A DNA stretch of 32,000 bases, taken from assembly GCF_030070105.2 (NCBI RefSeq), contig NZ_CP194951.1, positions 1,038,453 to 1,070,452 on the forward strand. Direction: 5' to 3'. The notes beneath the pieces are model-generated. The model was not told the DNA's origin. It ran no database searches and saw only the letters and a list, made by a program, of their open reading frames with translations. A program made the position numbers and the translations under genes. Of the stretch, positions 14,421 through 29,247 are shown piece after piece. Origin of the DNA: Bermanella sp. WJH001. Lineage in GTDB: Bacteria > Pseudomonadota > Gammaproteobacteria > Pseudomonadales > Oceanobacteraceae. Within the stretch, counting starts at the first letter, position 1. Each line of letters begins with the position of its first letter.

Positions 14421-15771
14421 ATCCTTAAATTGGCTAAAACAAACAGGTGAGTATCAATGTCAGCCAGTGGTATCGGGGCAATTAACCAGAATGGTTGGCC
14501 TGACAATGGAAGCGGTTGGCTGCAAAGTAAAAGTAGGGGATCGTTGCTGGGTCGAACAAGGGCGAGAAAATATCGAAGCAGAAGTGGTGGGGTTTGACCG
14601 CGAAAAATTCTTTTTAATGCCAATCGAACCGGTGCAAGGTTTATCACCCGGAGCAAAAGTCACCCCGATTCTTGATGGCGATCAAATTCCCGCAGGGTTT
14701 GGTTTATTAGGACGCGTTTTAAATGGCGCAGGAAGGCCGCTTGATGGTCTTGGTGATATTGTCAGTAATGAATACATCAGCCTTGAAGGCAAAATCATCA
14801 ACCCTATGCAGCGTGCCCCCATACGCGAAACCATGGATGTGGGAATACGGGCCATCAATGCACTTTTAACCGTGGGGCGTGGTCAACGCATGGGATTATT
14901 TGCAGGCTCTGGTGTGGGTAAAAGTATGTTACTGGGTATGATGACCCGCTTTACCACCGCCGACATTGTAGTCGTGGGTTTGGTGGGGGAGCGTGGCCGA
15001 GAAGTACAAGAATTCATTCAAGATATACATGGTGAAGAAGGCTTAAAGCGCGCAGTGGTTGTAGCCAGCCCTGCTGATGACTCCCCTATCATGCGTATGC
15101 GTGCCGCCTCATTAAGCACCGCGATAGCGGAATATTTTCGTGATGAAGGCAAAGATGTTTTATTGTTAATGGACAGTTTAACTCGTTATGGCCAAGCACA
15201 ACGGGAAGTGGCATTAGCGGTGGGTGAACCCCCAGCCACAAAAGGGTATCCACCTTCTGTATTTGCTAAAATTCCTAAATTAGTTGAGCGAACTGGCAAT
15301 GGGCCACCAGGTGGTGGCTCAATTACCGCATTTTATACGGTGCTCACAGAAGGCGATGACCTGCAAGACCCCATTGCCGATTCGGCGCGGGCGATACTAG
15401 ATGGTCACGTGGTATTAAGTCGCCGTTTAGCAGAAGAAGGCCAATACCCAGCCATTGATGTGGAGGCATCCATTAGCCGAGCCATGCCACAAATTGTAGA
15501 TGCTGTGACCTTGAAATCAGCTCAGCGATTTAAGTACCTCTATAGCTTGTATCAACAAAACAAAGATTTAATCAGCGTGGGTGCCTATAACCCAGGAAGC
15601 AACCCAGAGCTAGATCTAGCTGTGCGATTGAATCCCGTGATGAAAGCCTATTTGGCCCAAGACTTAAATCAATCACTGAGCCTTAAAGAGAGTATGGAAG
15701 GCTTAACCATGATATTAAACGAAGCATTAGGACGGCGAGCTGAACCACAAGGAGCACCTGAAGCGCAATGA
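14410..15771 (+). CDS. fliI: Flagellum-specific ATPase FliI
   Basis: Walker A 'GSGVGKS', Walker B 'VLLLMDSLTR' and F1-ATPase-like sequence throughout. The ORF opens at 14383. The ATGs at 14401, 14404 and 14410 follow AAGGA at 14396-14400, so the exact start is uncertain. It overlaps the fliH 3' end. Confidence 0.93.
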
Positions 15772-16217
15772 GTCGTGAACGTGCCAAACGATTAAAACCC
15801 CTTGTTCAGATTGCACAAAATGCCGTGAATGAAGCCCTTTCATACATTGGTGCACTGCAACAAAAGCTGCGCAGTGAAGAAGAGAAAAGTCAGACCCTAT
15901 TAGGGTATCAGCAAGACTACCGAGTCAATTTTCAAAACCAAGCCAGCATCAAGGTATCCGGATTACAGATTCAACAATTTGAATCATTTATGCACCAAAT
16001 AGACGATGCCATTGCCCAGCAAAACAACCACATCTTCCAAGTAAAAGAACAACTCAAAAAAGCACAGGGCATTTATCAAACCCTCAACCAAAAATTAAAG
16101 AGTTATGAAAAGTTAGAAACTCGACTTAATGATCAGGCAATAGCGTCAGAAAACCAACAGATGCAGAAATTTTTAGATGAAATTGGTGCACAACTTCATC
16201 GTCTTCATAGCTCATAA
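15768..16217 (+). CDS. fliJ: Flagellar export chaperone FliJ
   Basis: 149-aa coiled-coil protein with an ATGA overlap to the fliI stop, and synteny. Confidence 0.85.
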   Translation: MSRERAKRLKPLVQIAQNAVNEALSYIGALQQKLRSEEEKSQTLLGYQQDYRVNFQNQASIKVSGLQIQQFESFMHQIDDAIAQQNNHIFQVKEQLKKAQGIYQTLNQKLKSYEKLETRLNDQAIASENQQMQKFLDEIGAQLHRLHSS

Positions 16218-16307
16218 TTATTAACAAAAAAAACTTTCTGCCGCCCCCAACATTCCATGTATTACCGTCTAACATTATCAATAAATGAGCTAAAGGCTGT
16301 ACACATC

Positions 16308-16589
16308 ATGGAAATGGATAAGATTGACTTGGGTACGCGCTGTACCATAGTCAAAGCAGAGGAACTGCACGGGCAAATGGAAGGCTTGATTCAATCTGGC
16401 AATGACATCGAAATACAATCTGCTGGTATCGAGCAAATTGACACATCTGCTTTACAACTTCTTCTTAGTTTTCATCAAGCATTGGCTAAAGATAACCGAA
16501 AATTATCTTGGCCAAATCCATCAGAGCAAACAGTTGCCACAGCTAAGCTATTGGGTGTTGATGAATATATTGGATTAAGTGGACACTAA
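16308..16589 (+). CDS. Small STAS-domain protein (anti-sigma-antagonist fold), first gene of the chemosensory insert
   Basis: 'IEQIDTSALQLLLSFHQAL' matches the STAS 'D-S/T-S-x-L' helix motif. The ORF opens at 16257, and the ATG at 16308 gives a ~93-aa protein typical of single-domain STAS proteins. Confidence 0.7.
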   Translation: MEMDKIDLGTRCTIVKAEELHGQMEGLIQSGNDIEIQSAGIEQIDTSALQLLLSFHQALAKDNRKLSWPNPSEQTVATAKLLGVDEYIGLSGH

Positions 16590-16605
16590 TTCGGGAGAGC
16601 AATTT

Positions 16606-16968
16606 ATGGCAAAAATATTAGCAGTAGATGATTCAGCTTCCATGCGACAAATGGTGAGTTTTACCCTAAAAGGTGCTGGCCATGATGTGATTGAAGCCAG
16701 TGATGGTGTAGAGGCATTAAACTTTGCAAAAGGGCAAGGTGTCGACCTTGTGCTAAGTGATGTCAATATGCCAAACATGAATGGTATTGAGTTATGCCGT
16801 AATTTACGCGAATTACCAAGCTATAAATTCACGCCAATCTTAATGTTAACCACCGAGTCAGCTGGCGATAAAAAAATGGAAGGTAAAAGCGCAGGAGCGA
16901 CAGGTTGGATCGTTAAACCGTTTAATCCTGATCAGTTGCTTACGACCATCAAGAAAGTATTGGGATAA
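16606..16968 (+). CDS. cheY: CheY-like single-domain response regulator
   Basis: 'KILAVDDSASMR', 'LVLSDVNMPNMNG', 'MLTTES' and 'GWIVKPF' are the CheY signature residues. GGGAGAG lies upstream of the ATG at 16606; the ORF track's GTG at 16579 is unlikely. Confidence 0.9.
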   Translation: MAKILAVDDSASMRQMVSFTLKGAGHDVIEASDGVEALNFAKGQGVDLVLSDVNMPNMNGIELCRNLRELPSYKFTPILMLTTESAGDKKMEGKSAGATGWIVKPFNPDQLLTTIKKVLG

Positions 16969-16971
16969 ATC

Positions 16972-19113
16972 ATGAGTATTGATCTTAGTCAGTTCCACCA
17001 AGTATTTTACGAAGAGAGTTATGAAGGCCTTGATGCAATGGAGCAAGGCTTACTTGACTTAGACTTGGTAGAACCGGACGCTGAAGTCATCAATACTATT
17101 TTTCGTGCAGCGCATTCAATGAAAGGCGGTGCAGGCACCTTTGGTTTTACCCAGGTGGCTGATTTTACTCATGTGCTAGAAACGCTACTTGACCAAATAC
17201 GCAGCGGTCAACGGGCCATGAGCCAAGACATTCAAAACTTGTTACTCAAAAGTGTCGATTGCATAAGAGGTTTATTACAAGACCTACAAGCGAGTAATGA
17301 TCCTGATCTTGAAGAAAGCAAGGTCCTAAAGGCGCAATTTGAAGCCATATTAAATGGCGAGGCCCCATCAGTTGTCGAGCCTCCACAGCCCCCATCCGAT
17401 ATCCCAAAAGCTGAAAAAAATAGTGAAGCTGGCGGCTGGCATATTCGATTTATACCTGAACTGTCTATCTTACAAACCGGTAACGAACCCACACGAATGT
17501 TCCGTCAACTTGCAGACCTATGTGATAGCAATATGCAAGTGATTGCCGGTACCGAACGGGTGCCTGAATTTACCAGTTTGGACCCTGAACTGTGTTATTT
17601 AACATGGGATATTCGAATTGAAAAATCCATTTCAAAAGCAGACATAGAAGAAGTTTTTGAATGGGTAGCAGATGATGCCGAAATCATTATTACGCCGTTA
17701 TCAGGCAGTGTTAATGAATCAACCGACACAACAGCAGAAAAACAAACGGCAGAGCCCGACGTTACAGAAGTAGGCATGACAGAACCAGAAGTGGCTGAAT
17801 TGGCACCTGTTACACCACAAACCACAGCGTCATCTAAAACAGAAGCAGCTGTTTCAAAAACGGTAGAGAATCCAGCAAAACCTCAAGCTAAGGCCGCACC
17901 TAAGACGCAAGAGAGTTCATCTATCCGCGTGAGTATCGATAAGGTAGATAGCTTAATTAATATGGTGGGGGAATTAGTCATAACCCAATCTATGTTAGGA
18001 CAGCTTGGGCAAAACTTTGATATTACTCGTGTTCAGCGCTTACAAGAGGGCTTGGCACAACTTGAACATAACACTCGTGAGTTACAAGAAAGTGTTATGA
18101 AAATTCGTATGATGCCAATTAGTTTTGTCTTCAGTCGTTTTCCTCGTTTAGTTCGTGATGTGAGTATCTCTTTAGATAAAAAAATAGAACTGCTTATGTC
18201 TGGTGAAAATACCGAGCTTGATAAGACCGTAATGGAGAAAATTGGTGACCCAATGGTTCACTTGATTCGTAATTCCATTGACCATGGTATCGAAATGCCC
18301 GCAGATAGAATAGCGGCAGGTAAGCCAGAAACAGGCACCGTAAAATTAGATGCTTATCATCAAAGTGGCAATATTGTCATTGAAATTAAAGACGACGGTG
18401 CGGGCCTCAATACAGATCGAATTTTAACAAAAGCCATGGAAAAAGGTTTGGTTGCCGAAGGTGCAAATTTAAGTCAAGAACAGATATTCGACCTAATTTT
18501 TCAACCTGGTTTTTCAACGGCGGATGTTGTCAGTGATTTATCGGGCCGTGGCGTAGGCATGGATGTGGTGCGCAGAAACATTGCAGCTTTAAATGGCTCA
18601 ATTGAAGTGTCATCGGAGCGTGGGCGCGGTTCTCGCTTTGTCATAAGGCTGCCTCTGACCTTGGCAATTCTAGATGGACAACTGGTCAAAGTTGGAGAAG
18701 AAATTTATATCTTCCCACTGGTGAGCATTGTGGAATCGATCCAGTTAGATGATCGCGCAATCAATCATGTTGGTGGGCACAGCGATGTTCTGCAACTGCG
18801 CGATGAGTATGTGCCGATTGTTGAGCTTGACGAAGTATTTAATATTGATAAAGAAAAACGATCCATCGAAGAAAGCATTATTGTGGTGGTTGAAACAGAT
18901 GGTGAAAAAATCGGCGTTGTGGTGGATGAGTTGTTAGGGCAACAGCAAGTGGTTATCAAAAGCTTAGAAGAAAACTACAAGCGAGTAGATGGTATTTCAG
19001 GTGCGACCATACTAGGTGATGGAACAGTCGCATTAATTGTCGATGTGAGCAGCTTGTCAAAAATGAGCGGTGCATCATCTAGAATAATTGACGGTGGCCA
19101 TAAAGCCGCATAA
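16972..19113 (+). CDS. cheA: Chemotaxis histidine kinase CheA
   Basis: P1 Hpt 'AAHSMKGGAGTFG', P3 'IRVSIDKVDSLINMVGELVI', P4 N-box 'HLIRNSIDHGIE', G1 'DDGAGL', G2 'GRGVGMD', and a C-terminal CheW-like P5. Confidence 0.95.
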   Translation: MSIDLSQFHQVFYEESYEGLDAMEQGLLDLDLVEPDAEVINTIFRAAHSMKGGAGTFGFTQVADFTHVLETLLDQIRSGQRAMSQDIQNLLLKSVDCIRGLLQDLQASNDPDLEESKVLKAQFEAILNGEAPSVVEPPQPPSDIPKAEKNSEAGGWHIRFIPELSILQTGNEPTRMFRQLADLCDSNMQVIAGTERVPEFTSLDPELCYLTWDIRIEKSISKADIEEVFEWVADDAEIIITPLSGSVNESTDTTAEKQTAEPDVTEVGMTEPEVAELAPVTPQTTASSKTEAAVSKTVENPAKPQAKAAPKTQESSSIRVSIDKVDSLINMVGELVITQSMLGQLGQNFDITRVQRLQEGLAQLEHNTRELQESVMKIRMMPISFVFSRFPRLVRDVSISLDKKIELLMSGENTELDKTVMEKIGDPMVHLIRNSIDHGIEMPADRIAAGKPETGTVKLDAYHQSGNIVIEIKDDGAGLNTDRILTKAMEKGLVAEGANLSQEQIFDLIFQPGFSTADVVSDLSGRGVGMDVVRRNIAALNGSIEVSSERGRGSRFVIRLPLTLAILDGQLVKVGEEIYIFPLVSIVESIQLDDRAINHVGGHSDVLQLRDEYVPIVELDEVFNIDKEKRSIEESIIVVVETDGEKIGVVVDELLGQQQVVIKSLEENYKRVDGISGATILGDGTVALIVDVSSLSKMSGASSRIIDGGHKAA

Positions 19114-19619
19114 TGGAAGCCGATGCTATGACTGCAGTTAGTGAAATGGAAGAAAGTCAAAAAATTGGATCGGAAGACGGTGTTTTAACCGAGCAGTATC
19201 TGACTTTTATAATGGCTGATGAAGAATATGGTGTTGATATTCTTGCCGTTCAAGAAATTAGGGGTTGGGAGTCTGCGACCCCAGTACCTAACAGTCCAAA
19301 TTATTTAAAGGGGGTCATAAATTTACGCGGCACAATTGTCCCGATTATGGATTTACGCTTACGATTTGATCTTCCTAAGATTGAATACGGAGAAGAAACC
19401 GTTGTCGTTGTTTTAAAGATATTCACATCAACCGGAACTCGGACAATGGGAATAATTGTTGATGCCATAAGTGATGTCTATGACGTACCCATTGGTGAAG
19501 CAAAAAACAAAGGACTTGGTGATAACCAGAATTCAAATTTTATAAAAGGATTGGTAACCGTGAAAAAAAACATGGTGATTCTATTAGAACTTGAAAATCT
19601 TTTAACGATTGATGATTAG
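19113..19619 (+). CDS. cheW: Coupling protein CheW
   Basis: 'YLTFIMADEEYGVDILAVQEIR' and 'GVINLRGTIVPIMDLR' are the CheW signature. It overlaps the cheA stop by 1 nt. Confidence 0.92.
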   Translation: MEADAMTAVSEMEESQKIGSEDGVLTEQYLTFIMADEEYGVDILAVQEIRGWESATPVPNSPNYLKGVINLRGTIVPIMDLRLRFDLPKIEYGEETVVVVLKIFTSTGTRTMGIIVDAISDVYDVPIGEAKNKGLGDNQNSNFIKGLVTVKKNMVILLELENLLTIDD

Positions 19620-19631
19620 GTGGAAATAAAA

Positions 19632-22600
19632 ATGGATAGTTTGAGCCGGATGAGCATACAGTATAAATTTATCATGCCTTGGGTGTTGCCACTGATAGGG
19701 CTGGTATATGCCTTTATATCAATACCCCAAGAGCAAGCAGGGAATGCTCTCATTATACTGAGTTTATTATGTGCGGCTGGGCTCATTGCTCATTGGATGC
19801 AAGCCCATAAACTATTGACGGTTTTATTACTGGCAACCCGTAGCGCAAATGCCACCGCAAACGGTGATTATGGTTATGAACCCACAACCAAAGGTAAGGA
19901 TGAATTAGCCAAGCTTATTTATACCATGGTGAATTTACGTAATAGTGTTAAGTCTATTGCATCCAGTAGTGCTGATCTTGATAGTTCTAACTTGAAAGAA
20001 GACACAGAGAAAGTTGCGGCCATCGATAAGGTTCAAGCAATAATTGAATTCAATATGGATGGAACCATAATTACCGCAAACAAAAATTTCTTAGGAGCCG
20101 TCGGTTATTCATTAGAAGAGATACAGGGTAAGCACCATAGTATTTTTGTAGACTCAGAATTTAAAGCTAGCAATGAATATCAAGATTTCTGGAGAAAGCT
20201 CAATAATGGTGAGTTTGAATCTGCAGAATATAAGCGTGTAGGGAAAGGCGGAAAAGAAATTTGGATTCAAGCATCTTATAACCCAATTATTGGGAAAGAT
20301 GGTAAACCTTATAAAGTCATTAAATTTGCAACGGATATTACGCAGCAAAAAATTGATAATATATCTAATACTCGTATCAGAAGAGCTTTAGATTCATGCG
20401 CCGAGTCATGTTTAATGGTTGCGGATGAAAATTACGATCTTGTATATACCAATAAAGGTGTACAAGACATGTTTATCACGGCAGAGTCGGATATTAAGAA
20501 AAGTATTCCAAGCTTCTCTGTGGATAATGTTCTTGGTAAAAATATTGATATTTTCCACAAAGATCCAAGTTATCAGCGTTCAATGCTAGATAAATTATCA
20601 GACACATACAAAACCAAACTTGAGTTAGGAGATCGTACATTCTCATTGATCGTGAACCCAATATTAAGTGAAGAGGGTGCTCGCATTGGAACGGTAGTAG
20701 AGTGGACCGATAAAACAGAAGAAATTGCTCGTACCGAAAAAGAAGAAAAAATATCTGCCGAAAATGCTCGTACTCGCAGCGCGTTAGATGTGTGTCAGGC
20801 TAATGTGATGATGGCTGATGAAAACTTAAATATTGTTTATTTAAATAATTCGGTACGTGAAATGCTCACCGAGGCTCAGCCTGATATTAAGAAAGACTTA
20901 CCAAGCTTTGACGTCAGTAAATTAATGGGCTTTAACGTGGATGGTTTCCATAAAAACCCGGCTCATCAGCGTGGCATGCTAGCGGATTTAAAAGATGTTT
21001 ATAACACTAAAATTGTGGTGGGCGGTCGCACCTTTGATTTAGTGGCCACACCTGTTTGGCAAGATCAAAAACGTCTGGGCACGGTTGTTGAGTGGAAAGA
21101 CTTGACCGATCAACTTGCATTTGAAGCAGAACAAAAGCGTATTTCTGATGAAAATACACGTGTACGTTTAGCGCTTGATGCTTGTTCAGCGAATACGATG
21201 ATTGCCGATAATGATCAAAATGTGATTTACACCAATGAAGCGGTTTCAGGCATGTTGCGCATTGCTGAATCGGATGTACGCAAAGACCTACCTAACTTTA
21301 CCGCAAGTAAAGTATTGGGTAGTAATATTGATATTTTCCATAAAAATCCGGCACATCAACGTCAAATGTTATCAGCATTAAAAGATACCTATCGTACTCA
21401 GATTGTAGTGGGTGGTCGTACATTCTCCTTGATTGCCAACCCTATTATTAACCCAGAGGGTGAGCGATTAGGCACGGTTGTTGAGTGGAATGACCGTACT
21501 GAAGAAGTGGCGGTTGAACGTGAAGTGGATAACATTATTGAGTCAGCTGGTAAGGGCGAATTAAGTTTACGTGCCACGGTTGAAGATAAGAGTGGTTTCT
21601 TTAAAAATCTTTGCATGGGATTAAACAGCTTAATGACCATTTCGGAAAACGTCATTAATGATACAGCCCGTGTTTTAGATGCCATGGCACACGGTAAATT
21701 AGACGAACGCATTGAAGCAGATTATCAAGGTATTTTTGGCAAGCTTAAACAAGATGCCAATGATACGGGAGAGCGTTTAACAGATGTCATCGGTCGAATC
21801 CGCGAATCTGCAAATACCGTCAGTACCGGCTCCACTGAAATCGCACAAGGTAATACTGACTTAAGTCAACGTACCGAAGAGCAAGCCTCTAGCTTGGAAG
21901 AGACGGCATCCAGTATGGAAGAAATGACCAGCTCTGTTCGTCAAACCAGCGAAAATGCCTCTCATGCAAATAACCTAGCTGCCAATGCTCAAGAGAAAGC
22001 GCAAAAAGGTGGCGAGGTTGTGAGTAAAGCCGTTGGCGCAATGGAAGAAATTAACACCTCAAGTAAGAAAATTTCAGACATCATTGGTGTGATAGACGAA
22101 ATTGCATTCCAAACTAACCTACTCGCATTAAATGCTGCAGTAGAAGCAGCCAGAGCCGGTGAGCAAGGCAAAGGCTTTGCAGTGGTGGCAGGTGAGGTTA
22201 GAAACTTAGCACAGCGCAGTGCTGGGGCGGCAAAAGAAATTAAAGACTTAATTCGCGATAGTGTTGAAAAAGTCGATAATGGTACTGACCTTGTTAACAA
22301 ATCGGGACAAACTCTAGCAGAAATTGTAGAAGCCGTTGAAAAAGTTAACACCATGATTAAAGAAATCAGTTCAGCCTCTGAAGAGCAAGCCAGTGGTATA
22401 GAGCAAGTAAACAAAGCCATTAGCCAAATGGATGAAATGACTCAGCAAAATGCTGCTCTAGTAGAAGAAGCATCTGCGGCCAGTGAAACCATGACCGAGC
22501 AAGCCAAAAACATGCTGGATCTCGTGGGTTTCTTTAAAGTGGCTTCGGGTTCTGATACTCATAATCCTATGGGGCATCAGTCAGCTATGATGAGTCACTC

Positions 22601-22712
22601 ATCTAAGCCTTCTCAATCAAAATCAAGCGCGTCATCTACACAAATCCATAAACCGACTACGGCAAGTCGACCTGTGGTAAAAGATGACGACGACGATTGG
22701 CAAGAATTTTAG
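19632..22712 (+). CDS. Methyl-accepting chemotaxis protein: TM hairpin-HAMP-PAS-(Aer2-like PAS)x3-HAMP-MA domain-tether-DWQEF
   Basis: MCP hairpin tip '[42 protein letters not shown]'. Two hydrophobic segments lie at residues ~17-34 and 42-59 with a 7-aa loop. There are four PAS-like modules. The ORF opens at a GTG at 19620, but the ATG at 19632 follows AGGTGGA. Confidence 0.93.
20370..21512 (+). repeat. Three tandem diverged copies (~390-400 bp period) encoding paralogous PAS domains within the MCP
   Basis: Copies at ~20370-20729, 20769-21119 and 21159-21512. They share blocks R-x-R-x-ALD-x-C, 'KDLP.F', 'FHK(N/D)P..QR.ML', 'GGRTF.L' and 'GTVVEW.D.T'. Roughly half the residues are identical between copies 2 and 3, by eye. 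Confidence 0.9.
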
Positions 22713-22726
22713 AGAAGTAATGTACT

Positions 22727-23551
22727 ATGGATTTCTCGGGTAAGGAATTCCCAATGGCTGATGAGGACTTTAAACGCCTCTCAGCCAAGGCTTACGAAAT
22801 CAGTGGCATCGTATTGGGAGATCAAAAAAAAGAATTAGTTTATAGTCGTATATCCAGACGCATTAGAAAACTAGGTCTTAAAAATTTCTCTGAGTACTGC
22901 CAGCATTTAGAAGCGAATCATACTGCTGAAGTAAATGAATTTGTTAATTCAATTACAACAAACCTAACGTCATTCTTTCGTGAATCTCATCATTTTGAGT
23001 ATTTAGCAAAAGAAATCATACCGCATTGGAAAAAGCAAAATAAGTCGATCCCCATTCGTATATGGTCATCGGCTTGCTCTACCGGTCCTGAGCCATACAG
23101 TATTGCAATCACTTTGCATAAAAACATGATGGTCAAACAACATAATATTAAAATATTAGCAACCGACTTAGATAGTGATGTTTTAAAAAAAGGTCGTGAA
23201 GGCATTTACCCTCTTACCGAAATTGAGCAATTACCGAAAGACTACCTGTCTTGTTTTCAGCAGAATGCAACAACGGGTATGGGAATGGTAAAGCCTGAAA
23301 TAAAAGAAATGATTCAATTTAATCGCTTAAATTTGCTTGGCCCTTGGCCAATGAATGCAAAATTTGATGTGATATTTTGTCGTAATGTGGTGATTTATTT
23401 TAATAAAGAAACCCAAAAAGAATTATTTGAACGTTTAGCAGATCAGCTTAACGATGGTGGTTATTTATTTATAGGTCATAGTGAAACACTGCACGGTATG
23501 ACCTCTCGGTTTGAGTCTAAAGGCCGAACTATTTATAAAAAGATAAGGTGA
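22727..23551 (+). CDS. cheR: Chemotaxis protein methyltransferase CheR
   Basis: 'TNLTSFFRESHHF', 'RIWSSACSTGPEPYSIA', 'DVIFCRNVVIYF' and 'LFIGHSE' motifs. An alternative start at 22754 is preceded by TAAGGA. Confidence 0.93.
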   Translation: MDFSGKEFPMADEDFKRLSAKAYEISGIVLGDQKKELVYSRISRRIRKLGLKNFSEYCQHLEANHTAEVNEFVNSITTNLTSFFRESHHFEYLAKEIIPHWKKQNKSIPIRIWSSACSTGPEPYSIAITLHKNMMVKQHNIKILATDLDSDVLKKGREGIYPLTEIEQLPKDYLSCFQQNATTGMGMVKPEIKEMIQFNRLNLLGPWPMNAKFDVIFCRNVVIYFNKETQKELFERLADQLNDGGYLFIGHSETLHGMTSRFESKGRTIYKKIR

Positions 23552-23555
23552 TTAC

Positions 23556-24197
23556 ATGGCACATAATCCACTGAATCAGCCACCTGCTGAAAAAGGGTTT
23601 GAGCATGTTAATCGCTATTTTGATCCAAAGATAAATGTATGGTCAGCAAAAATATTGCCAGGTGAATTTTATGTTACCACTCATGGCGAAATGATTGGCA
23701 CGGTTTTGGGTTCTTGTATCAGTGCTTGTGTGCGAGATGTCACACTAGGTATAGGTGGTATGAACCATTTTATGCTGCCCATTCAAAACGAGCATAGTTC
23801 AGCGCAGTGGGGCAGCGATGCCAATACGTCTGAGACTCGTTATGGCAATTGGGCCATGGAGTATTTATTGAATACGCTTTATAAAATGGGTTGTACGAAG
23901 CGAAATCTAGAAGTGAAGTTATTTGGTGGCGGACAAGTACTTGCCAGTATGACGGATATCGGGCAAAGAAACATATTATTTGCGTACGATTTTTTACGCA
24001 AAGAAGGCATCAATGTAAAAGCTGCCGATGTAGGTGATGTTTATTCGAGAAAAATACTTTATTTTCCCGATACCGGATGTGTGAAAGTAAGGCGCATTAC
24101 AACCACGAAAAATGAAACCATTATCGAGCGCGAAAAGGGCTACCTGGATTCTATCAGGCAGCATAAAGATGACTCTGATATTGAACTATTTGATTAA
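23556..24197 (+). CDS. cheD: Chemoreceptor glutamine deamidase CheD
   Basis: 'ILPGEFYVT', 'TVLGSCISACVRD', 'GGMNHFMLP' and 'VKLFGGG' are the CheD signature. The position between cheR and cheB matches Che2/F7 clusters. Confidence 0.88.
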   Translation: MAHNPLNQPPAEKGFEHVNRYFDPKINVWSAKILPGEFYVTTHGEMIGTVLGSCISACVRDVTLGIGGMNHFMLPIQNEHSSAQWGSDANTSETRYGNWAMEYLLNTLYKMGCTKRNLEVKLFGGGQVLASMTDIGQRNILFAYDFLRKEGINVKAADVGDVYSRKILYFPDTGCVKVRRITTTKNETIIEREKGYLDSIRQHKDDSDIELFD

Positions 24198-24209
24198 CAA
24201 GGGTGGATC

Positions 24210-25268
24210 ATGATTAAAGTGCTGATCGTAGATGATTCAATCTTAATACGAAAAGTTTTAACACAGATATTATCTGATCAGGCGGATATCCAAGTAGTGG
24301 GTACGGCGGCTGATCCCTATATTGCTAGGGATAAAATTAAAGCCCTCAATCCAGATGTCATTACGCTTGATATTGAAATGCCTAAAATGGACGGTATTAC
24401 CTTTTTGCGTAACCTAATGCGCTTAAGGCCTTTGCCGGTTGTGATGATTTCCACACTCACACAAAAAGGTGCACCATCAACATTAGAAGCGTTGGAAATC
24501 GGAGCCGTAGATTATATCGGTAAACCCAGTGCCGATAAGCCTGAATTGTTAAGTGAATATGCCTCAGAAATCATAGAAAAAGTGAAAATGGCGTCGGTCG
24601 CCAACGTGAGTCGCCTAGAGGTTCAGGCCAATAGAACACCGCCAAAAGTGATTAAACCTATTGAAAAACAAGGTTTGAATCGAGACGGTTTAATTGTGAT
24701 TGGCGCTTCCACCGGAGGCACTGAAGCCATTAGGGAGCTGCTGTGCATGTTGCCAGTGGACACCCCACCAATCGTCATCACTCAACATATACCGCCGGTG
24801 TTCAGTGCATCATTTGCTAAGCGAATTAATGGCATGATTCAGCAAGAAGTCAGTGAAGCACAAGATGGCGATAAGATTATGCCAGGACATATTTATATCG
24901 CCCCTGGTGACAAGCAATTTGAAGTTGTGCAAAAAGGTGGTCACTTCTACTGTAAAGTGTATGACGGTGAACGGGTCAATTTACATAAACCGTCGGTAGA
25001 GGTTTTATTTGACTCGATTAGCCGTAACCCGCAACTGGCAAAACGCTCCATTGGCATTATGCTCACAGGAATGGGGGCAGATGGAGCACAAGCCATGCTG
25101 AGAATGAAGCAAGCGGGTTGTTATAATATTGTGCAAGATAAAGAAAGTTCAGTTGTTTGGGGAATGCCTGGTGCCGCGGTTGATTGTGGCGCGGCAGATA
25201 AGGTTTTACCACTTAATCACATTGCAGCCCATGTGGTATCACATTTAAAAAAGGGAATTAAGCGTTAA
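24210..25268 (+). CDS. cheB: Chemotaxis response regulator protein-glutamate methylesterase CheB
   Basis: REC domain ('VITLDIEMPKMDG') plus an esterase domain ('IGASTGGTEA', 'ITQHIP', 'MLTGMGADGA'). Confidence 0.95.
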   Translation: MIKVLIVDDSILIRKVLTQILSDQADIQVVGTAADPYIARDKIKALNPDVITLDIEMPKMDGITFLRNLMRLRPLPVVMISTLTQKGAPSTLEALEIGAVDYIGKPSADKPELLSEYASEIIEKVKMASVANVSRLEVQANRTPPKVIKPIEKQGLNRDGLIVIGASTGGTEAIRELLCMLPVDTPPIVITQHIPPVFSASFAKRINGMIQQEVSEAQDGDKIMPGHIYIAPGDKQFEVVQKGGHFYCKVYDGERVNLHKPSVEVLFDSISRNPQLAKRSIGIMLTGMGADGAQAMLRMKQAGCYNIVQDKESSVVWGMPGAAVDCGAADKVLPLNHIAAHVVSHLKKGIKR

Positions 25269-25346
25269 ATTTTACTAAATTATTTTTTTTGAACTATGCT
25301 CAAAATATGCAGTACAACTCTACGCCAAGGAAATAAGAGGTTTGAC

Positions 25347-25646
25347 ATGCCGGTAAATGCTTCGATTAAAGGTGATGAATTGACCGTCACCGTGGAAGGG
25401 CGCTTTGACTTTAGTGCACATCAAGAATTCCGTGATGCTTATGAAGATGCGGGGGCAGGTGTGAGTAAATACGTGATAGATATGTCTAAGGCTTCATATT
25501 TAGACAGCTCCGCACTTGGTATGCTTTTATTGCTGCGTGATCATGCCGGTGGTGAGAGCTCAAATGTGCGTATTACACGTTGCAATGCCGATGTGAAAAA
25601 AATTCTAACCATTTCGAATTTTGAGCAACTCTTTACTATCGATTAG
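25347..25646 (+). CDS. STAS-domain anti-sigma-factor antagonist (HsbA/SpoIIAA-like)
   Basis: 'ASYLDSSALGMLLLL' is the phosphorylatable DSS-x-LG motif, with serines at residues 54-55 counted from the ATG at 25347. AAGAGG precedes that ATG. The ORF opens at 25296. Confidence 0.8.
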   Translation: MPVNASIKGDELTVTVEGRFDFSAHQEFRDAYEDAGAGVSKYVIDMSKASYLDSSALGMLLLLRDHAGGESSNVRITRCNADVKKILTISNFEQLFTID

Positions 25647-25667
25647 CGGTAAGGTCTGAGGTCAGTT

Positions 25668-27383
25668 ATGGATGAAAGACCGCTACATGTATTAGTGGCA
25701 GATGATAACCAATCTGATCGAATGATACTGTGTGCCATCGTTAAAAAAATGGGCTACACCGTATGTGAAGCCGCTGATGGTAATGAAGCCATCGACCAAT
25801 TTTTAGAACAAAAACCTGACATCATCTTACTTGATGTGATTATGCCCAATTTAAATGGGCAACAAGCCGCTAAGACAATCAAGACCCTAGCGGGAGAAGA
25901 TATGGTTCCTATTATCTTCTTAACCTCTCTACAAGAAGCGTCTGACTTAGCCGCCTGCTTAGAAAGTGGTGGCGATGATTTTATTTCTAAGCCTTATAAT
26001 AAAATCATTCTGCAAGCAAAAATCAATGCTTTTAGTCGCATGCTGAAAATGCACACAACCTTGCAAACTCAGCGTGATTTAATCCGCGAAAATAATGAAC
26101 ATATGCGTCACGAGCAGCAAGTTGCAAGAGCTGTATATGATAATGTGGCACACAGTGGCTGTTTAGATCTACCCAACATTAAGCACTTGTTATCTCCTTT
26201 TTCTATTTTTAATGGTGATGTTCTTTTAGCTGCGCGCAAGCCTTCAGGCAGTATTCATATTTTATTAGGTGACTTTACCGGACACGGTCTGCCTGCTGCT
26301 ATTGGGGCGATGCCACTTGCTGAAATATTTTATGGTATGACGGCAAAAGGTTTTTTTATGTCGGATATTCTTCGAGAGATTAATATCAAATTAAAAAAAA
26401 TCTTACCAGTGGGTTACTTTTGCTGTACCTGTATGGCCAATATGAGTTTTAGACGCAACGAAATTGAAGTGTGGATGGGCGGATTACCAGATTTTGGCTT
26501 GTATCGTAAAAACACAGGTCAAGTTGAGCGAATTAAATCCAACCATTTACCTTTAGGGGTTTTGTCATCCCAAGCCTTTGATGCAGAAACCAAAACATTT
26601 GACTTCTTACCTGGTGATAAATTCTACATGTGGTCAGATGGTATCATTGAAGCCCGTAATTCTGATGGTGAACTGTTTGGCGATGAACGATTATTTTCGG
26701 TTTTTGATAATAAAAATAGCGATGACTATTTTGATAATATTCTAAAAAGTGTTAATCAATTTGTTGGTGAAAATGGCCGAGACGATGATACAACGTTATT
26801 AGAGTTGTCTATGGTTGATGAGTCTGAGATCGGTAGAGTGGATATTGATCTCTCAAGTGGTGCCATTAGTGGCCCCACAAATTGGAATATGATTTATACC
26901 CTAAGAGACGAAACCCTAAAGTCGTTTAATCCTTTGCCTATTATGCTAAACATTTTAAATGATGTGCCGGCATTACGGCGTTTAAGTGGGCAATTGTATA
27001 CCCTAATGGCCGAGTTATTTTCTAATGCGTTTGAGCATGGTGTGCTTGGATTAAGTTCGGAACTTAAAAAAACCGCCGATGGTTTTGCCGAATATTATCG
27101 TTTACGCAGTTGCGCGATGGAGTCTTTAGAGAATGCGTTTGTTAAATTTGATTTTGATCTGACCCCGACCAAAGATGGCGGTAAGCTGACCATCATTGTA
27201 GAAGATAGTGGGGAAGGTTTTGATTATGATAATGATAACTTCGACTCAAATATTGATGAAAATGTCGCATATTCTGGCCGAGGTATTCCACTGATTTATA
27301 GTTTATGCGATAGTCTCACCTATCTTGATAAGGGTAATAAAGTCAAAGTTTGCCTATCATGGAAATCCCCGATTGAGGAGTAG
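25668..27383 (+). CDS. Three-domain REC - PP2C (SpoIIE-type) phosphatase - RsbW-like HATPase serine kinase (HsbR-like partner-switch regulator)
   Basis: REC domain 'VLVADDN...IILLDVIMPNLNG...SKPY'. PP2C motifs 'GDFTGHGLPAA', 'WSDGIIEA' and 'GRDDDTTLLEL'. C-terminal kinase N-box 'ELFSNAFEHG', G1 'EDSGEGFD' and G2 'SGRGIPL'. Confidence 0.85.
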   Translation: MDERPLHVLVADDNQSDRMILCAIVKKMGYTVCEAADGNEAIDQFLEQKPDIILLDVIMPNLNGQQAAKTIKTLAGEDMVPIIFLTSLQEASDLAACLESGGDDFISKPYNKIILQAKINAFSRMLKMHTTLQTQRDLIRENNEHMRHEQQVARAVYDNVAHSGCLDLPNIKHLLSPFSIFNGDVLLAARKPSGSIHILLGDFTGHGLPAAIGAMPLAEIFYGMTAKGFFMSDILREINIKLKKILPVGYFCCTCMANMSFRRNEIEVWMGGLPDFGLYRKNTGQVERIKSNHLPLGVLSSQAFDAETKTFDFLPGDKFYMWSDGIIEARNSDGELFGDERLFSVFDNKNSDDYFDNILKSVNQFVGENGRDDDTTLLELSMVDESEIGRVDIDLSSGAISGPTNWNMIYTLRDETLKSFNPLPIMLNILNDVPALRRLSGQLYTLMAELFSNAFEHGVLGLSSELKKTADGFAEYYRLRSCAMESLENAFVKFDFDLTPTKDGGKLTIIVEDSGEGFDYDNDNFDSNIDENVAYSGRGIPLIYSLCDSLTYLDKGNKVKVCLSWKSPIEE

Positions 27384-27388
27384 GTAGT

Positions 27389-27721
27389 ATGTCCCATTTA
27401 AATATGGAGCAAATTCAAGAATTAAAAGACATTATGGAAGAAGGCTTTAATGATCTTGTCTTAACCTATTTACATGATAGCGAAGTAAAACTGACGGCAT
27501 TAAAAGCGGCCATTCAATCCTCAAAGAGTGAGCAGGTTGCTGAAATTGCTCACAGCTTAAAAGGCTCTAGTGCCAATATCTATGCTGAGTCCTTATCTGC
27601 ACTGTTCAAAAAAGTTGAGGATTCAGGTCGCTCGCAAACATTACAAGATGTACCGTATGTGTTTGAGAAAATAGAAGAAGAATTCTCACACGTTAAAACT
27701 CAACTGCAACAATTACAGTAA
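27389..27721 (+). CDS. Stand-alone histidine phosphotransfer (Hpt) protein (HptB-like)
   Basis: 'VAEIAHSLKGSSANIYAESL' is the Hpt active-site helix. It is 110 aa and starts 5 nt after the preceding gene, with GAGGAG upstream. Confidence 0.85.
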   Translation: MSHLNMEQIQELKDIMEEGFNDLVLTYLHDSEVKLTALKAAIQSSKSEQVAEIAHSLKGSSANIYAESLSALFKKVEDSGRSQTLQDVPYVFEKIEEEFSHVKTQLQQLQ

Positions 27722-27748: not shown

Positions 27749-27783
27749 AATTCTTTATATCAAAGAATTAATTGGGTCATGTT

Positions 27784-29187
27784 ATGCCAGTATCTCCGCT
27801 ATTTTCACTTGTGTCACCCGTCACACCAAGTAATACAAATGGGCCTTTGTCTCAATCAGGCGCGAACAATAATGGGGTTTTAAGCCCCATATCAAGCACA
27901 AATACAGACTCTTCTGACCTTTCTCAAGGTCAAACGACGTTAAGTTTTTTTGAACAACTACAAGTGGCAAATGATCTAAATAATTTGCCACTTGGGCAAG
28001 AATTTGCCGCTTATTTGCCGCACGTATCGGTCGATGAAGAAAGCCCGATGACGCAGCTGAATACTGATTTTGTAGGGCCATTAACTCCCTTAACATTAGA
28101 GCATACCCATAACACGGACGATGCCAGTGGAATTTTATACAGCCCAATAAATCAAGCCGTAACGCTGGATAGCACGCAAGTAGAAACACCTGAAGGACTA
28201 CAATATCTTGAAAGCTTGCGACGAGCGCAACCCCATATCCAGTCTCAAGGGGCATTAAGTTCTAACATGACACAAGAGGATCTGGTTGAGGGTAATTTAG
28301 ATACCCAAGCTCAAGTTAAACTCGTGCAGTCCGAACTCTCTGCAAGACAGGCACATATCCCTGAAGCGGCTGCGAAAATAGTGGACCCAAATCTTCAGGC
28401 TGTGAATCCTGCTATTGCGATGAATGCACAAAATAATAAAGCGATTAATCTCGACGAACTGTCAATGGATGTATTAACAGAAGAGATCACTTTAGATGAG
28501 GCCAGTTTAGATGGCATGCACTTAGAATCAGAATCGATACATGACCAGCCAAAAACATTAACAGCGTTAAAAGAAAACAGCATGGTGAATGTTTCGGTGA
28601 ATCAAGAAAGTAGCGCGTTACCTGACGCTAAGCTTAATGGAATGGAAACCATCACAGCAGGGTTAAAAGAATCAGCGGCTACAAAATCCATGGCCTTAGA
28701 TCAGGGCGACGGTGTTAAAACGCAAACACTAACCGCAGAAAAATTGGCCAGTCACTTTAATAAATTAGATGTGCCACCTCAAAGTCCACAATGGAATGAT
28801 CAGGTGGCAAAACGAATTAGCATCATGGCCAGTGAAAGTGTGCAAAGTGCCCGCATCCAGTTGGACCCTCCAGAATTAGGCTCTTTAGAAATTAAAGTCA
28901 AAGTGCAAAACGATCAGGTAAGTGTGGCATTTGGCAGTAATAACCAAATGGTGCGCGATGCATTAGAAAGTCAAACCCCACGCCTTCGTGAGTTGCTAGA
29001 GCAGCAGGGTGTGGATTTAGCCGATGTGAATGTCTCTGAACAAGGCCGAGATCAAAATGGTCAAGATTCAAATGAAGCACTTACACAAGGGGGTGATCAA
29101 GAGGGCGACGCAATAGGAGCTGATCCGTTGACTGACCAAGAGATCCAAACCTTTGAAAGCGATGCTTTAGTGGATTACTTCGCTTAA
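27784..29187 (+). CDS. fliK: Flagellar hook-length control protein FliK
   Basis: The C-terminal domain 'ARIQLDPPELGSLEIKVKVQNDQVSVAFGSNNQMVRDALESQTPRLRELLEQQGVDLADVNV' is the FliK signature, and the N-terminal region is Q/S/N/T-rich and looks disordered. The ORF opens at a TTG at 27772. Confidence 0.9.
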   Translation: MPVSPLFSLVSPVTPSNTNGPLSQSGANNNGVLSPISSTNTDSSDLSQGQTTLSFFEQLQVANDLNNLPLGQEFAAYLPHVSVDEESPMTQLNTDFVGPLTPLTLEHTHNTDDASGILYSPINQAVTLDSTQVETPEGLQYLESLRRAQPHIQSQGALSSNMTQEDLVEGNLDTQAQVKLVQSELSARQAHIPEAAAKIVDPNLQAVNPAIAMNAQNNKAINLDELSMDVLTEEITLDEASLDGMHLESESIHDQPKTLTALKENSMVNVSVNQESSALPDAKLNGMETITAGLKESAATKSMALDQGDGVKTQTLTAEKLASHFNKLDVPPQSPQWNDQVAKRISIMASESVQSARIQLDPPELGSLEIKVKVQNDQVSVAFGSNNQMVRDALESQTPRLRELLEQQGVDLADVNVSEQGRDQNGQDSNEALTQGGDQEGDAIGADPLTDQEIQTFESDALVDYFA

Positions 29188-29207: not shown

Positions 29208-29247
29208 CCTTGTCGTGCTTAGGCATGGCAAGGCCCTTCTTTTTTTC
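29208..29247 (+). terminator. Probable intrinsic terminator after fliK
   Basis: An ~11-bp stem (ccttgtcgtgc pairs with gcatggcaagg, with two G-U pairs) has a ttag tetraloop and is followed by cccttcttttttt. Confidence 0.5.

Follow-up and report, generated by a model that had tools for sequence, protein, structure and literature searches.

Probable hsbA, hsbR and hptB orthologues at the end of an F7-type chemosensory cluster in a flagellar locus of Bermanella

The genes at positions 25347-27721 of the window, as we call the whole 32,000-nucleotide stretch of Bermanella sp. WJH001 DNA analysed here, are very probably orthologues of hsbA, hsbR and hptB that end a vertically inherited stage-1 F7 chemosensory cluster, with HptB as the best-supported phosphodonor of HsbR. 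Gene order, domain architecture, key residues, position and phylogeny all point to this identity, and the triad together with the adjoining che block is a new example of systems that are already known. There is nothing unusual in the gene set itself, whose members are orthologues of the genes of a characterised switch and occupy their customary flagellar site. Its value is comparative: the layout joins the literature on the Pseudomonas HptB/HsbR/HsbA lifestyle switch with that on ancestral F7/Che2 chemosensing, a system still said to have no known output. In the literature searched, no paper names both "HsbR" and "Aer2".

Genes and proteins of the triad

The three genes are co-oriented in the order hsbA-hsbR-hptB (ORF list and Pfam; Table 1), with gaps of 78 nt between cheB and hsbA, 21 nt between hsbA and hsbR, 5 nt between hsbR and hptB, and 50 nt between hptB and fliK. 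The Pfam E-values of the triad and of fliK exclude chance by a wide margin. A preliminary description made from the sequence had recognised here a triad of STAS, REC-PP2C-RsbW-kinase and Hpt proteins directly upstream of fliK, with the gene and domain order of P. aeruginosa PA3347-PA3346-PA3345 and a DSS-x-LG phosphorylation motif in the STAS protein. The domain search that it proposed matched STAS, Response_reg, SpoIIE, HATPase_c_2 and Hpt, and all of these features are present as described.

Table 1. Features of the locus, in window coordinates.
Feature	Position	Strand	Description and evidence
fliJ	15768-16217	+	Upstream flagellar flank; Pfam FliJ 1.5e-19
STAS-1	16257-16589	+	Divergent 5' STAS protein; Pfam STAS_2 2.1e-12; motif DTSALQ; start probably ATG 16308
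F7 (Che2-type) chemosensory core	16579-25268	+	cheY to cheB; Pfam
cheY	16579-16968	+	Pfam
cheA	16972-19113	+	Pfam; own Hpt/P1 domain
cheW	19113-19619	+	Pfam
Aer2-like PAS/HAMP receptor	19620-22712	+	Pfam
cheR	22727-23551	+	Pfam
cheD	23556-24197	+	Pfam
cheB	24210-25268	+	Pfam
Sigma-70-like site	25098-25127	+	Lead only for an hsbA promoter; extended -10 (TG, TATAAT), poor -35; in the 3'-terminal part of cheB
hsbA, predicted orthologue (STAS-2)	25347-25646	+	99 aa; Pfam STAS_2 4.3e-12, STAS 1.1e-11
hsbR, predicted orthologue	25668-27383	+	571 aa; Response_reg 3.1e-24 (8-119), SpoIIE 2.5e-38 (193-380), HATPase_c_2 1.9e-09 (447-561)
hptB, predicted orthologue	27389-27721	+	110 aa, single-domain histidine phosphotransfer protein; Pfam Hpt 2.3e-11
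fliK	27772-29187	+	Downstream flagellar flank; Pfam Flg_hook/FliK 1.1e-25
Terminator-like hairpin	29208-29233		First strong one, 3' of fliK; 11 pairs and T-run

HsbA is a predicted anti-sigma-factor antagonist carrying the motif Y-L-D53-S54-S55-A-L-G58, and DSSALG is found in 133 of the 135 STAS-2 homologues examined. Its predicted phosphorylation site, Ser54, falls on residue 56 when the protein is aligned with its counterpart from L089, a locus of presumed Pseudomonas identity (57% identity, motif in register); the phosphorylation site of P. aeruginosa HsbA is Ser56 (PMC5085249). We prefer the start at ATG 25347, and reject a longer reading frame from 25296, because AAGAGG lies 6 nt upstream of this ATG and the homologues are about 101 aa long. 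As to the promoter, P. putida PhsbA is described with a poor -35 and an extended -10. In our consensus scan sigma-70-like sites were no commoner, indeed fewer, than in shuffled sequences, so the site at 25098-25127 is only a lead.

HsbR consists of a receiver (REC), a PP2C (SpoIIE) phosphatase and an RsbW-like Ser kinase (HATPase_c_2). Residues invariant among 12 homologues include D12, D13, D56, T86 and K108 in the receiver, D202, G205-H206-G207, D324-G325 and D372-D374 in the phosphatase, and E449, N453, D513-x-G515-x-G517 and G537-x-G539 in the kinase, whose N-box, G1 and G2 boxes are intact. It shares 46% identity with the L089 protein over 566 residues. HptB has a conserved His55 within AHSLKGSS, and its best PDB match is 7C1I, the P. 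aeruginosa HptB (E 6.9e-15), with AHSLKGSS aligned to AHSFKGGS; identity with the Hpt protein of L089 is 33%.

The F7 cluster and the history of the locus

Judged by its sequence, the region 16257-27383 is the published stage-1 ancestral F7 (Aer2) cluster. The preliminary description had correctly placed a CheA with its own Hpt (P1) domain in the same locus and on the same strand, and it missed the cluster as such. The stage-1 order is STAS, cheY, cheA, cheW, aer2, cheR, cheD, cheB, STAS, serine phosphatase (Ortega 2020, PMC7184735); the window has this order from the 5' STAS gene through an aer2-like gene to cheB, followed by the 3' STAS and REC-serine phosphatase genes (STAS-2 and HsbR). As in stage-1 genomes, a separate flagellar che (F6) system is found elsewhere: a second CheA and CheB are encoded at C1:1080743-1084207, near a FliA-like sigma gene. 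STAS-1 matches the 5' anti-sigma antagonist of stage-1 clusters (PMC7184735), and its homologues stand first in the che block of related loci. The end of its reading frame shares 11 nt with the beginning of cheY, and the residue at its phospho-position is T or S in the flagellar clade, whereas several distant loci have G or A there.

Nevertheless, the window differs from stage-1 clusters in several respects. It has one cheW, the second cheW-like gene being missing, and STAS-2 follows 78 nt after cheB without an mcpA-like receptor gene, which encodes about 400 aa and is present in the majority of F7-linked loci from other families. Moreover, hptB follows the phosphatase gene, and the cluster sits inside a flagellar cluster, between fliJ and fliK. 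Known stage-1 examples are V. cholerae cluster III and V. vulnificus che2 with RsbU/RsbV (PMC7184735; Stuffle et al. 2022, PMC10107281).

We compared the locus with the 80 closest loci listed in a scan of genome contigs. STAS-2 and HsbR precede fliK/fliL in all 80, and an Hpt gene lies 3' of hsbR in almost all of them, whereas a che block occurs in about half (37 complete and 2 relic loci). The trees were anchored in Pseudomonas indirectly, by the HptB structure 7C1I and by L089 (62% GC, a 6.5-Mb genome of the same order as the window organism, P. putida gene order), whose Hpt protein matches 7C1I at 4e-26. In the phylogeny, also proposed in the preliminary description, HsbR does not fall away from hsbR: one clade takes in the window protein and all flagellar or Hpt-linked homologues, including L089 (support 100 in FastTree with 78 rows; SH-aLRT 100 in IQ-TREE with 33 representatives). 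Outside it are the genome's own REC-PP2C paralogue and the F7-only or orphan homologues. This paralogue belongs to a second STAS and REC-PP2C pair (C1:1385086-1387079), which we rejected as the true hsbAR given its 36% identity and its place in the tree, and also because it has neither Hpt nor flagellar neighbours and no Pfam kinase match.

Within the HsbR tree, che-less and che-bearing loci are interspersed, which forces at least six changes, and the CheB proteins of the che-bearing loci form one clade (support 95). Relics lie exactly at the fliJ|hsbA junction: L024 retains an entire cheB, L049 a cheB fragment of 66 aa and L053 a cheY that is split. Together, these observations indicate that the che-less, Pseudomonas-type layout was derived from the che-bearing layout by deletion, and on the same grounds we rejected the alternative to an ancestral and later deleted che block. 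Relics and trees also suggest an origin of the Pseudomonas module from an F7 cluster, which would make che-bearing Oceanospirillales well suited for testing oxygen input from Aer2 to the switch.

Phosphodonors and outputs of the switch

If the switch works as in P. aeruginosa and P. putida, HptB would be phosphorylated on His55 by hybrid sensor kinases, and the phosphoryl group would pass from HptB to the HsbR receiver, at Asp56. Phosphorylated HsbR would act as a PP2C phosphatase on HsbA-Ser54~P and unphosphorylated HsbR as a Ser kinase on HsbA, whose phosphorylation state would select its binding partner, with FlgM, a diguanylate cyclase or the kinase domain of HsbR as candidates; this kinase domain may itself hold RpoS. 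The genome encodes FlgM (G000:C1:2666714) and RpoS (above the curated cut-off). Within Pseudomonas the partners are species-specific: the outputs of HsbA are FlgM and HsbD in P. aeruginosa, but CfcR/CfcA in P. putida, where FlgM is not antagonised. FlgM binding is therefore an unsafe criterion, and the target of HsbA is uncertain.

HptB is the likely dedicated donor to HsbR, as two comparisons indicate. Firstly, che-bearing loci share the α1, β4-α4 and β5-α5 surfaces of the receiver with che-less ones, with only position 57 differing, although this is weak evidence since it is confounded by relatedness and genomes with a che-less hsbR may have an F7 cluster elsewhere. Secondly, an HptB-like Hpt, free or fused to a hybrid kinase, is encoded directly 3' of distant HsbR homologues in 7 of the 37 F7-linked loci outside the clade. 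Every che-bearing relative among the closest 80 loci keeps the Hpt gene, and the genome encodes at least nine hybrid kinases without an Hpt domain and only two free Hpt proteins.

Compatible with this HptB-HsbR-HsbA explanation is a tentative reading in which the kinase domain of HsbR mainly sequesters RpoS as an anti-sigma factor, with HsbA as the antagonist, as in the CrsR-CrsA system. Indeed, the kinase domains of both HsbR and CrsR bind RpoS in two-hybrid assays, and HsbR-HsbA controls RpoS post-translationally in P. aeruginosa (PMC6482189); besides, hsbAR-hptB is RpoS-dependent in P. putida, and RpoS is encoded in the present genome. The polarity differs, however, because HsbR binds phosphorylated HsbA whereas CrsR binds unphosphorylated CrsA (PMC6482189), the sequence is silent on which sigma or anti-sigma factor binds, and no sigma factor gene is adjacent to the triad.

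It is also possible, if doubtful, that in this lineage one receiver integrates F7 CheA (or CheY/STAS-1) and the hybrid-kinase/HptB relay. If this were true, the much-studied Hsb pathway of Pseudomonas would be what remained once the che genes had been deleted or moved.

The conserved gene linkage makes it likely that the F7 pathway and the switch are functionally connected. In a 400-genome sample of the class, 37 of the 67 full-length HsbR-like loci combine an F7 core, STAS-2 and the HsbR-like gene, and the same neighbourhood has been kept in dozens of gammaproteobacterial families whose proteins share 30-45% identity. Without selection for co-function or co-regulation, this persistence would be difficult to account for. 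Translational coupling of STAS-1, the second STAS protein, to cheY further argues against an improbable reading in which neither module, che block or hsb triad, depends on or signals to the other, and their common stationary-phase or flagellar transcription unit reflects history alone. Such independence would nevertheless be consistent with at least five deletions of the che block in which hsbAR-hptB was kept, with a Pseudomonas Hsb pathway that works without an adjacent F7 cluster, with F7 clusters that can sit elsewhere where hsbR is che-less, and with P. aeruginosa Che2, a stage-2 cluster without STAS and phosphatase genes (PMC7184735).

Direct input from CheA to HsbR, which the preliminary description had raised, is a hypothesis, and the comparative data favour HptB and offer nothing positive for CheA. 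An adjacent Hpt is missing in 30 of the 35 F7-only loci outside the HsbR clade, so that the receiver there has to rely on CheA or an unlinked kinase, which makes CheA input conceivable here. In a rival reading, which we regard as unlikely, the HsbR receiver would be a direct phosphotransfer target of F7 CheA, alone or with HptB, and the oxygen signal of Aer2 would set HsbA phosphorylation, making the partner switch the output long sought for ancestral F7 systems. The scarcity of adjacent Hpt genes, the very widely kept linkage (37 of 67 loci) and the co-inheritance of che and hsb genes in the trees are consistent with such a target; moreover, linkage of STAS and phosphatase genes is a defining trait of stage-1 F7 clusters (PMC7184735), and S. 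oneidensis che1 has the homologous CrsR/CrsA pair, with Che1 proposed to act on RpoS. Yet a two-hybrid assay in V. vulnificus showed no interaction between CheA2 and RsbU (data not shown in PMC10107281), and the F7 cluster has its own CheY and CheB receivers. The retention of HptB in every che-bearing relative, the similar receiver surfaces, and the recurrence of Hpt donors beside HsbR homologues even when an F7 core is adjacent also speak against it.

Comparison with known systems

SypE of V. fischeri likewise joins an RsbW-like Ser kinase, a receiver and a PP2C phosphatase in one polypeptide that acts on a STAS protein, SypA. Its receiver is central (kinase-REC-PP2C; PMC3610818), whereas the order in the window is REC-PP2C-kinase, a difference already pointed out in the preliminary description, and we rejected a SypE-type regulator as the identity of HsbR on this domain order.

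The CrsR-CrsA pair of S. oneidensis che1 (F7) consists of a REC-PP2C-kinase regulator and a STAS antagonist and has a genetic linkage to an F7 cluster of the Aer2 type. The pair is reported to be homologous to HsbR-HsbA, and the reported identity of HsbR to CrsR is only 25.5%. Besides the polarity mentioned above, the pair differs, as described, in lying upstream of cheY (stage 2) and in having no Hpt.

Compared with the Pseudomonas HptB-HsbR-HsbA system (PA3345-PA3347; PP_4362-PP_4364), identities to the L089 proteins are moderate, and the window has STAS-1, cheYAW, aer2 and cheRDB between fliJ and hsbA. In P. putida, the operon hsbAR-hptB-fliKLMNOPQR-flhB lies just 3' of fliJ, which is the normal arrangement in most Pseudomonas, and the position of the triad directly 5' of fliK is hence not peculiar. 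The two systems share this position on one strand, after fliJ and directly before fliK, as well as the gene order hsbA-hsbR-hptB and the REC-PP2C-Ser-kinase architecture. They also agree in the DSSALG serine that aligns with Ser56, in a single-domain Hpt protein whose closest solved structure is 7C1I, and, by way of the presumed Pseudomonas locus L089, in membership of the same HsbR clade.

The hsb genes as the tail of an F7 cluster

The window (G000:C1:1038453-1070452) is a flagellar gene cluster of a Bermanella-like gammaproteobacterium, in which Pfam scans show one co-oriented gene series; from fliJ through fliK, a hairpin scan detected no strong terminator-like hairpin. The preliminary description had recognized a STAS protein (STAS-2), a REC-PP2C-kinase protein (HsbR), and an Hpt protein as counterparts of HsbA, HsbR, and HptB; their coordinates, domain calls, and the DSS-x-LG motif are all confirmed by Pfam and sequence inspection. 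Their placement directly upstream of fliK, also correctly described, is no peculiarity of the window but the usual address of these genes, because the P. putida operon hsbAR-hptB-fliKLMNOPQR-flhB has the same placement, directly after fliJ. P. putida PP_4362-4364 have been described as orthologues of PA3345-3347.

The best HsbR match, from "Bermanella sp.", is 94% identical. The residues for all three activities of HsbR are invariant across 12 aligned homologues: the acidic pocket, Asp56, Thr86, and Lys108 of the receiver; the GDFTGHG, SDG, and DDD motifs of the PP2C domain; and the N-box (E449, N453) and both glycine boxes of the kinase domain. STAS-2 homologues carry the motif DSSALG in 133 of 135 cases, and the closest solved relative of the Hpt protein is 7C1I, the P. 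aeruginosa HptB (PMC7467158).

The interval 16257-27383 is a stage-1 cluster of the F7 (Aer2-type) chemosensory class, a match that had been missed. The order of this ancestral layout is anti-sigma antagonist, cheY, cheA, two cheW, aer2-like, cheR, cheD, cheB, mcpA-like, second anti-sigma antagonist, and serine phosphatase, and its function was stated to be unknown (Ortega 2020, PMC7184735). By comparison, the cluster here has a single cheW, no mcpA-like gene, and hptB as an addition. The same antagonist/phosphatase pair, annotated RsbU/RsbV, occurs in Vibrio che2/che3 clusters (PMC10107281), and S. oneidensis che1 carries CrsR/CrsA. In a sample of 400 gammaproteobacterial genomes, matches at E <= 1e-30 occurred in 91, from which 67 full-length HsbR-like loci were fetched. 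Of these 67 loci, 37 directly follow an F7 core, so that HsbR proteins, taken as a family, are chiefly F7-cluster tails; other contexts are rarer: 16 orphans, 8 with the upstream side cut by a contig end, 3 with only an mcpA-like gene, and 3 che-less with Hpt and/or flagellar genes. In L095, L097, L103, and L125, the gene immediately 3' of the F7-linked HsbR homologue encodes a thiamine-pyrophosphate enzyme (TPP_enzyme_N/M/C, about 600-650 aa).

Positions of features in the window and in related loci
Feature	Position	Remarks
TPR + methyltransferase protein, 689 aa	2216-4285 (-)	adjoins fliS on opposite strand
fliS, fleQ, fleS, fleR, fliE, fliF, fliG, fliH, fliI, fliJ		5' part of series; co-oriented; Pfam
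FliH, 431 aa	13125-14420	far beyond Pfam core (residues 129-252)
fliJ	15768-16217	co-oriented; Pfam
STAS-1	16257-16589	co-oriented; Pfam; stop overlaps cheY start
cheY, cheA, cheW, 1030-aa PAS/HAMP receptor, cheR, cheD, cheB	ends 25268	co-oriented; Pfam
F7 cheY	16579-16968
Extended -10 site	25098-25127	only a promoter lead
STAS-2	25347-25646	co-oriented; Pfam; AAGAGG precedes ATG 25347
HsbR (REC-SpoIIE-HATPase_c_2)	25668-27383	co-oriented; Pfam
Hpt protein	27389-27721	co-oriented; Pfam
fliK, fliL, fliM, fliN, fliO		downstream of Hpt gene; co-oriented; Pfam
First strong terminator-like hairpin	29208-29233	hairpin scan
Second STAS + REC-PP2C pair, same genome	G000:C1:1385086-1387079 (L007:6087-8080)	orphan, outside window
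Lone full-length cheB	L024:8504-9565	between fliJ and hsbA
66-aa cheB fragment	L049:3956-4156	between fliJ and hsbA
Split cheY	L053:8634-9029	between fliJ and hsbA
cheR-like gene	L088:7751-8605	between fliJ and hsbA

Two layouts and the direction of change

A scan of genome contigs listed the 80 closest named loci (HsbR 50-94% identical); STAS-2 and HsbR precede fliK/fliL in all of them, and Hpt does so in almost all. Layout A, fliJ-hsbA-hsbR-hptB as in P. putida, accounts for 36 of these 80 (e.g. Pseudohongiella, Hahella, Marinobacter, Cellvibrio, Saccharospirillum). Layout B, that of the window, with STAS-1, cheYAW, aer2, and cheRDB between fliJ and hsbA, accounts for 39, two relics included (e.g. 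Bermanella, Oleispira, Thalassolituus, Bacterioplanoides, Litoribrevibacter, Oleiphilaceae, some Reinekea).

A single clade unites every HsbR protein linked to flagellar or Hpt genes (FastTree, support 100, 78 rows; IQ-TREE, SH-aLRT 100, 33 representatives). It includes the window HsbR, in agreement with its initial assignment to hsbR, and that of L089. L089 is a layout-A locus (62% GC) in a genome of 6.5 Mb that belongs to the same order; its Hpt matches HptB 7C1I at 4e-26, and identities to the window are 46% (HsbR), 57% (HsbA), and 33% (Hpt). The REC-PP2C protein of the second pair in the Bermanella genome (562 aa; 36% identity with HsbR of the window) falls outside this clade. Its C-terminal domain has no Pfam match, and the pair has DUF454, UPF0149, and LysR regulator genes as neighbors, with no flagellar, che, or Hpt genes.

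Inside the clade the two layouts are interspersed, and the starred branches of the HsbR tree force at least six changes. The layout-B CheB proteins form a single clade (support 95), apart from a long-branched pair from Reinekea and two distant loci, L105 and L112. Three che-less loci have che remnants exactly at the fliJ/hsbA junction, which are relics of a deleted F7 block. From these three observations we infer that layout B is ancestral for the clade and that the Pseudomonas-type layout A is its deletion derivative. The reverse scenario, in which che genes entered at an insertion hot spot, fits the interspersion, the CheB clade, and the junction relics less well.

The cheR-like gene of che-less L088, which resembles the P. 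aeruginosa cheR-hsbA adjacency, is either an F7 relic or a flagellar cheR. L112 (G252:C128), from another family, has the order cheA-cheW-aer2-cheRDB-hsbA-hsbR-hpt-fliK, yet the flagellar clade does not include its HsbR; this implies either transfer of the block or a che-bearing flagellar layout that predates the clade.

Inputs and outputs of the switch

In P. aeruginosa, phosphorylated HptB switches on the HsbR phosphatase, and HsbA, once dephosphorylated by it, binds FlgM; when HptB~P is lacking, HsbR acts as a kinase on Ser56 of HsbA, and the phosphorylated HsbA associates with HsbR and with the cyclase HsbD (PMC5085249). RpoS is another binding partner of the HsbR kinase domain (PMC6482189). 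In P. putida, HsbA phosphorylation is under the same relay, but the targets of HsbA are CfcR/CfcA, with no antagonism of FlgM, and transcription of the hsb cluster is RpoS-dependent. The Bermanella genome encodes FlgM, RpoS, and at least nine hybrid kinases that lack an Hpt domain; its free Hpt proteins number only two. The parts of the relay are present, with FlgM one candidate target of HsbA. Contig C2 (80,367 bases) repeats 79 kb of the chromosome (C1:1273529-1352502) at 100% identity, which accounts for duplicated kinase matches; C2 might be an assembly duplicate or else an excised or circular element.

Sequence comparisons favor HptB as the probable dedicated donor to the HsbR receiver. 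Layout-B loci retain Hpt; the receiver α1, β4-α4, and β5-α5 surfaces are alike in both layouts, differing at position 57 only; and, outside the clade, 7 of 37 F7-linked loci have an HptB-like Hpt domain directly 3' of the HsbR homologue, several of these domains being fused to PAS/GAF hybrid kinases. In distant families (L114, L116, L118, L134, L099, L126), large PAS/GAF hybrid histidine kinases ending in an HptB-like Hpt are found directly 3' of HsbR-like genes; these domains look like a fused counterpart of free HptB.

Regarding the F7 block, we lean toward coupling to the switch by a route other than CheA phosphotransfer, e.g. CheY, STAS-1, array binding, or co-regulation. F7 CheY is 75-81% identical across genera where CheA shows 55-62% and HsbR 53-57%, an unusually strong constraint for a response regulator without an assigned target. 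STAS-1 belongs to a separate subfamily with the motif D-T-S/A-x-L-Q and no glycine after it; in the clade the phospho-position is occupied by T or S, but several distant loci have G or A there. STAS-1 might serve HsbR as a second substrate, or else act as a CheS-like accessory of CheA; alpha-proteobacterial CheS is a CheA-binding STAS protein. That the block and the switch have no functional link at all seems rather unlikely. Direct input from CheA to the HsbR receiver is still less probable. In its favor, the linkage of F7 core and switch is very old and widespread, and an adjacent Hpt is absent from 30 of 35 F7-only loci; against it, a V. vulnificus two-hybrid assay gave no CheA2-RsbU interaction (PMC10107281).

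All parts of the locus belong to already described systems. To these, our analysis adds evidence for a deletion origin of the che-less layout, a family-wide link of HsbR homologues with F7 clusters, recurrent Hpt donors beside HsbR homologues, and caution in using FlgM as a criterion.
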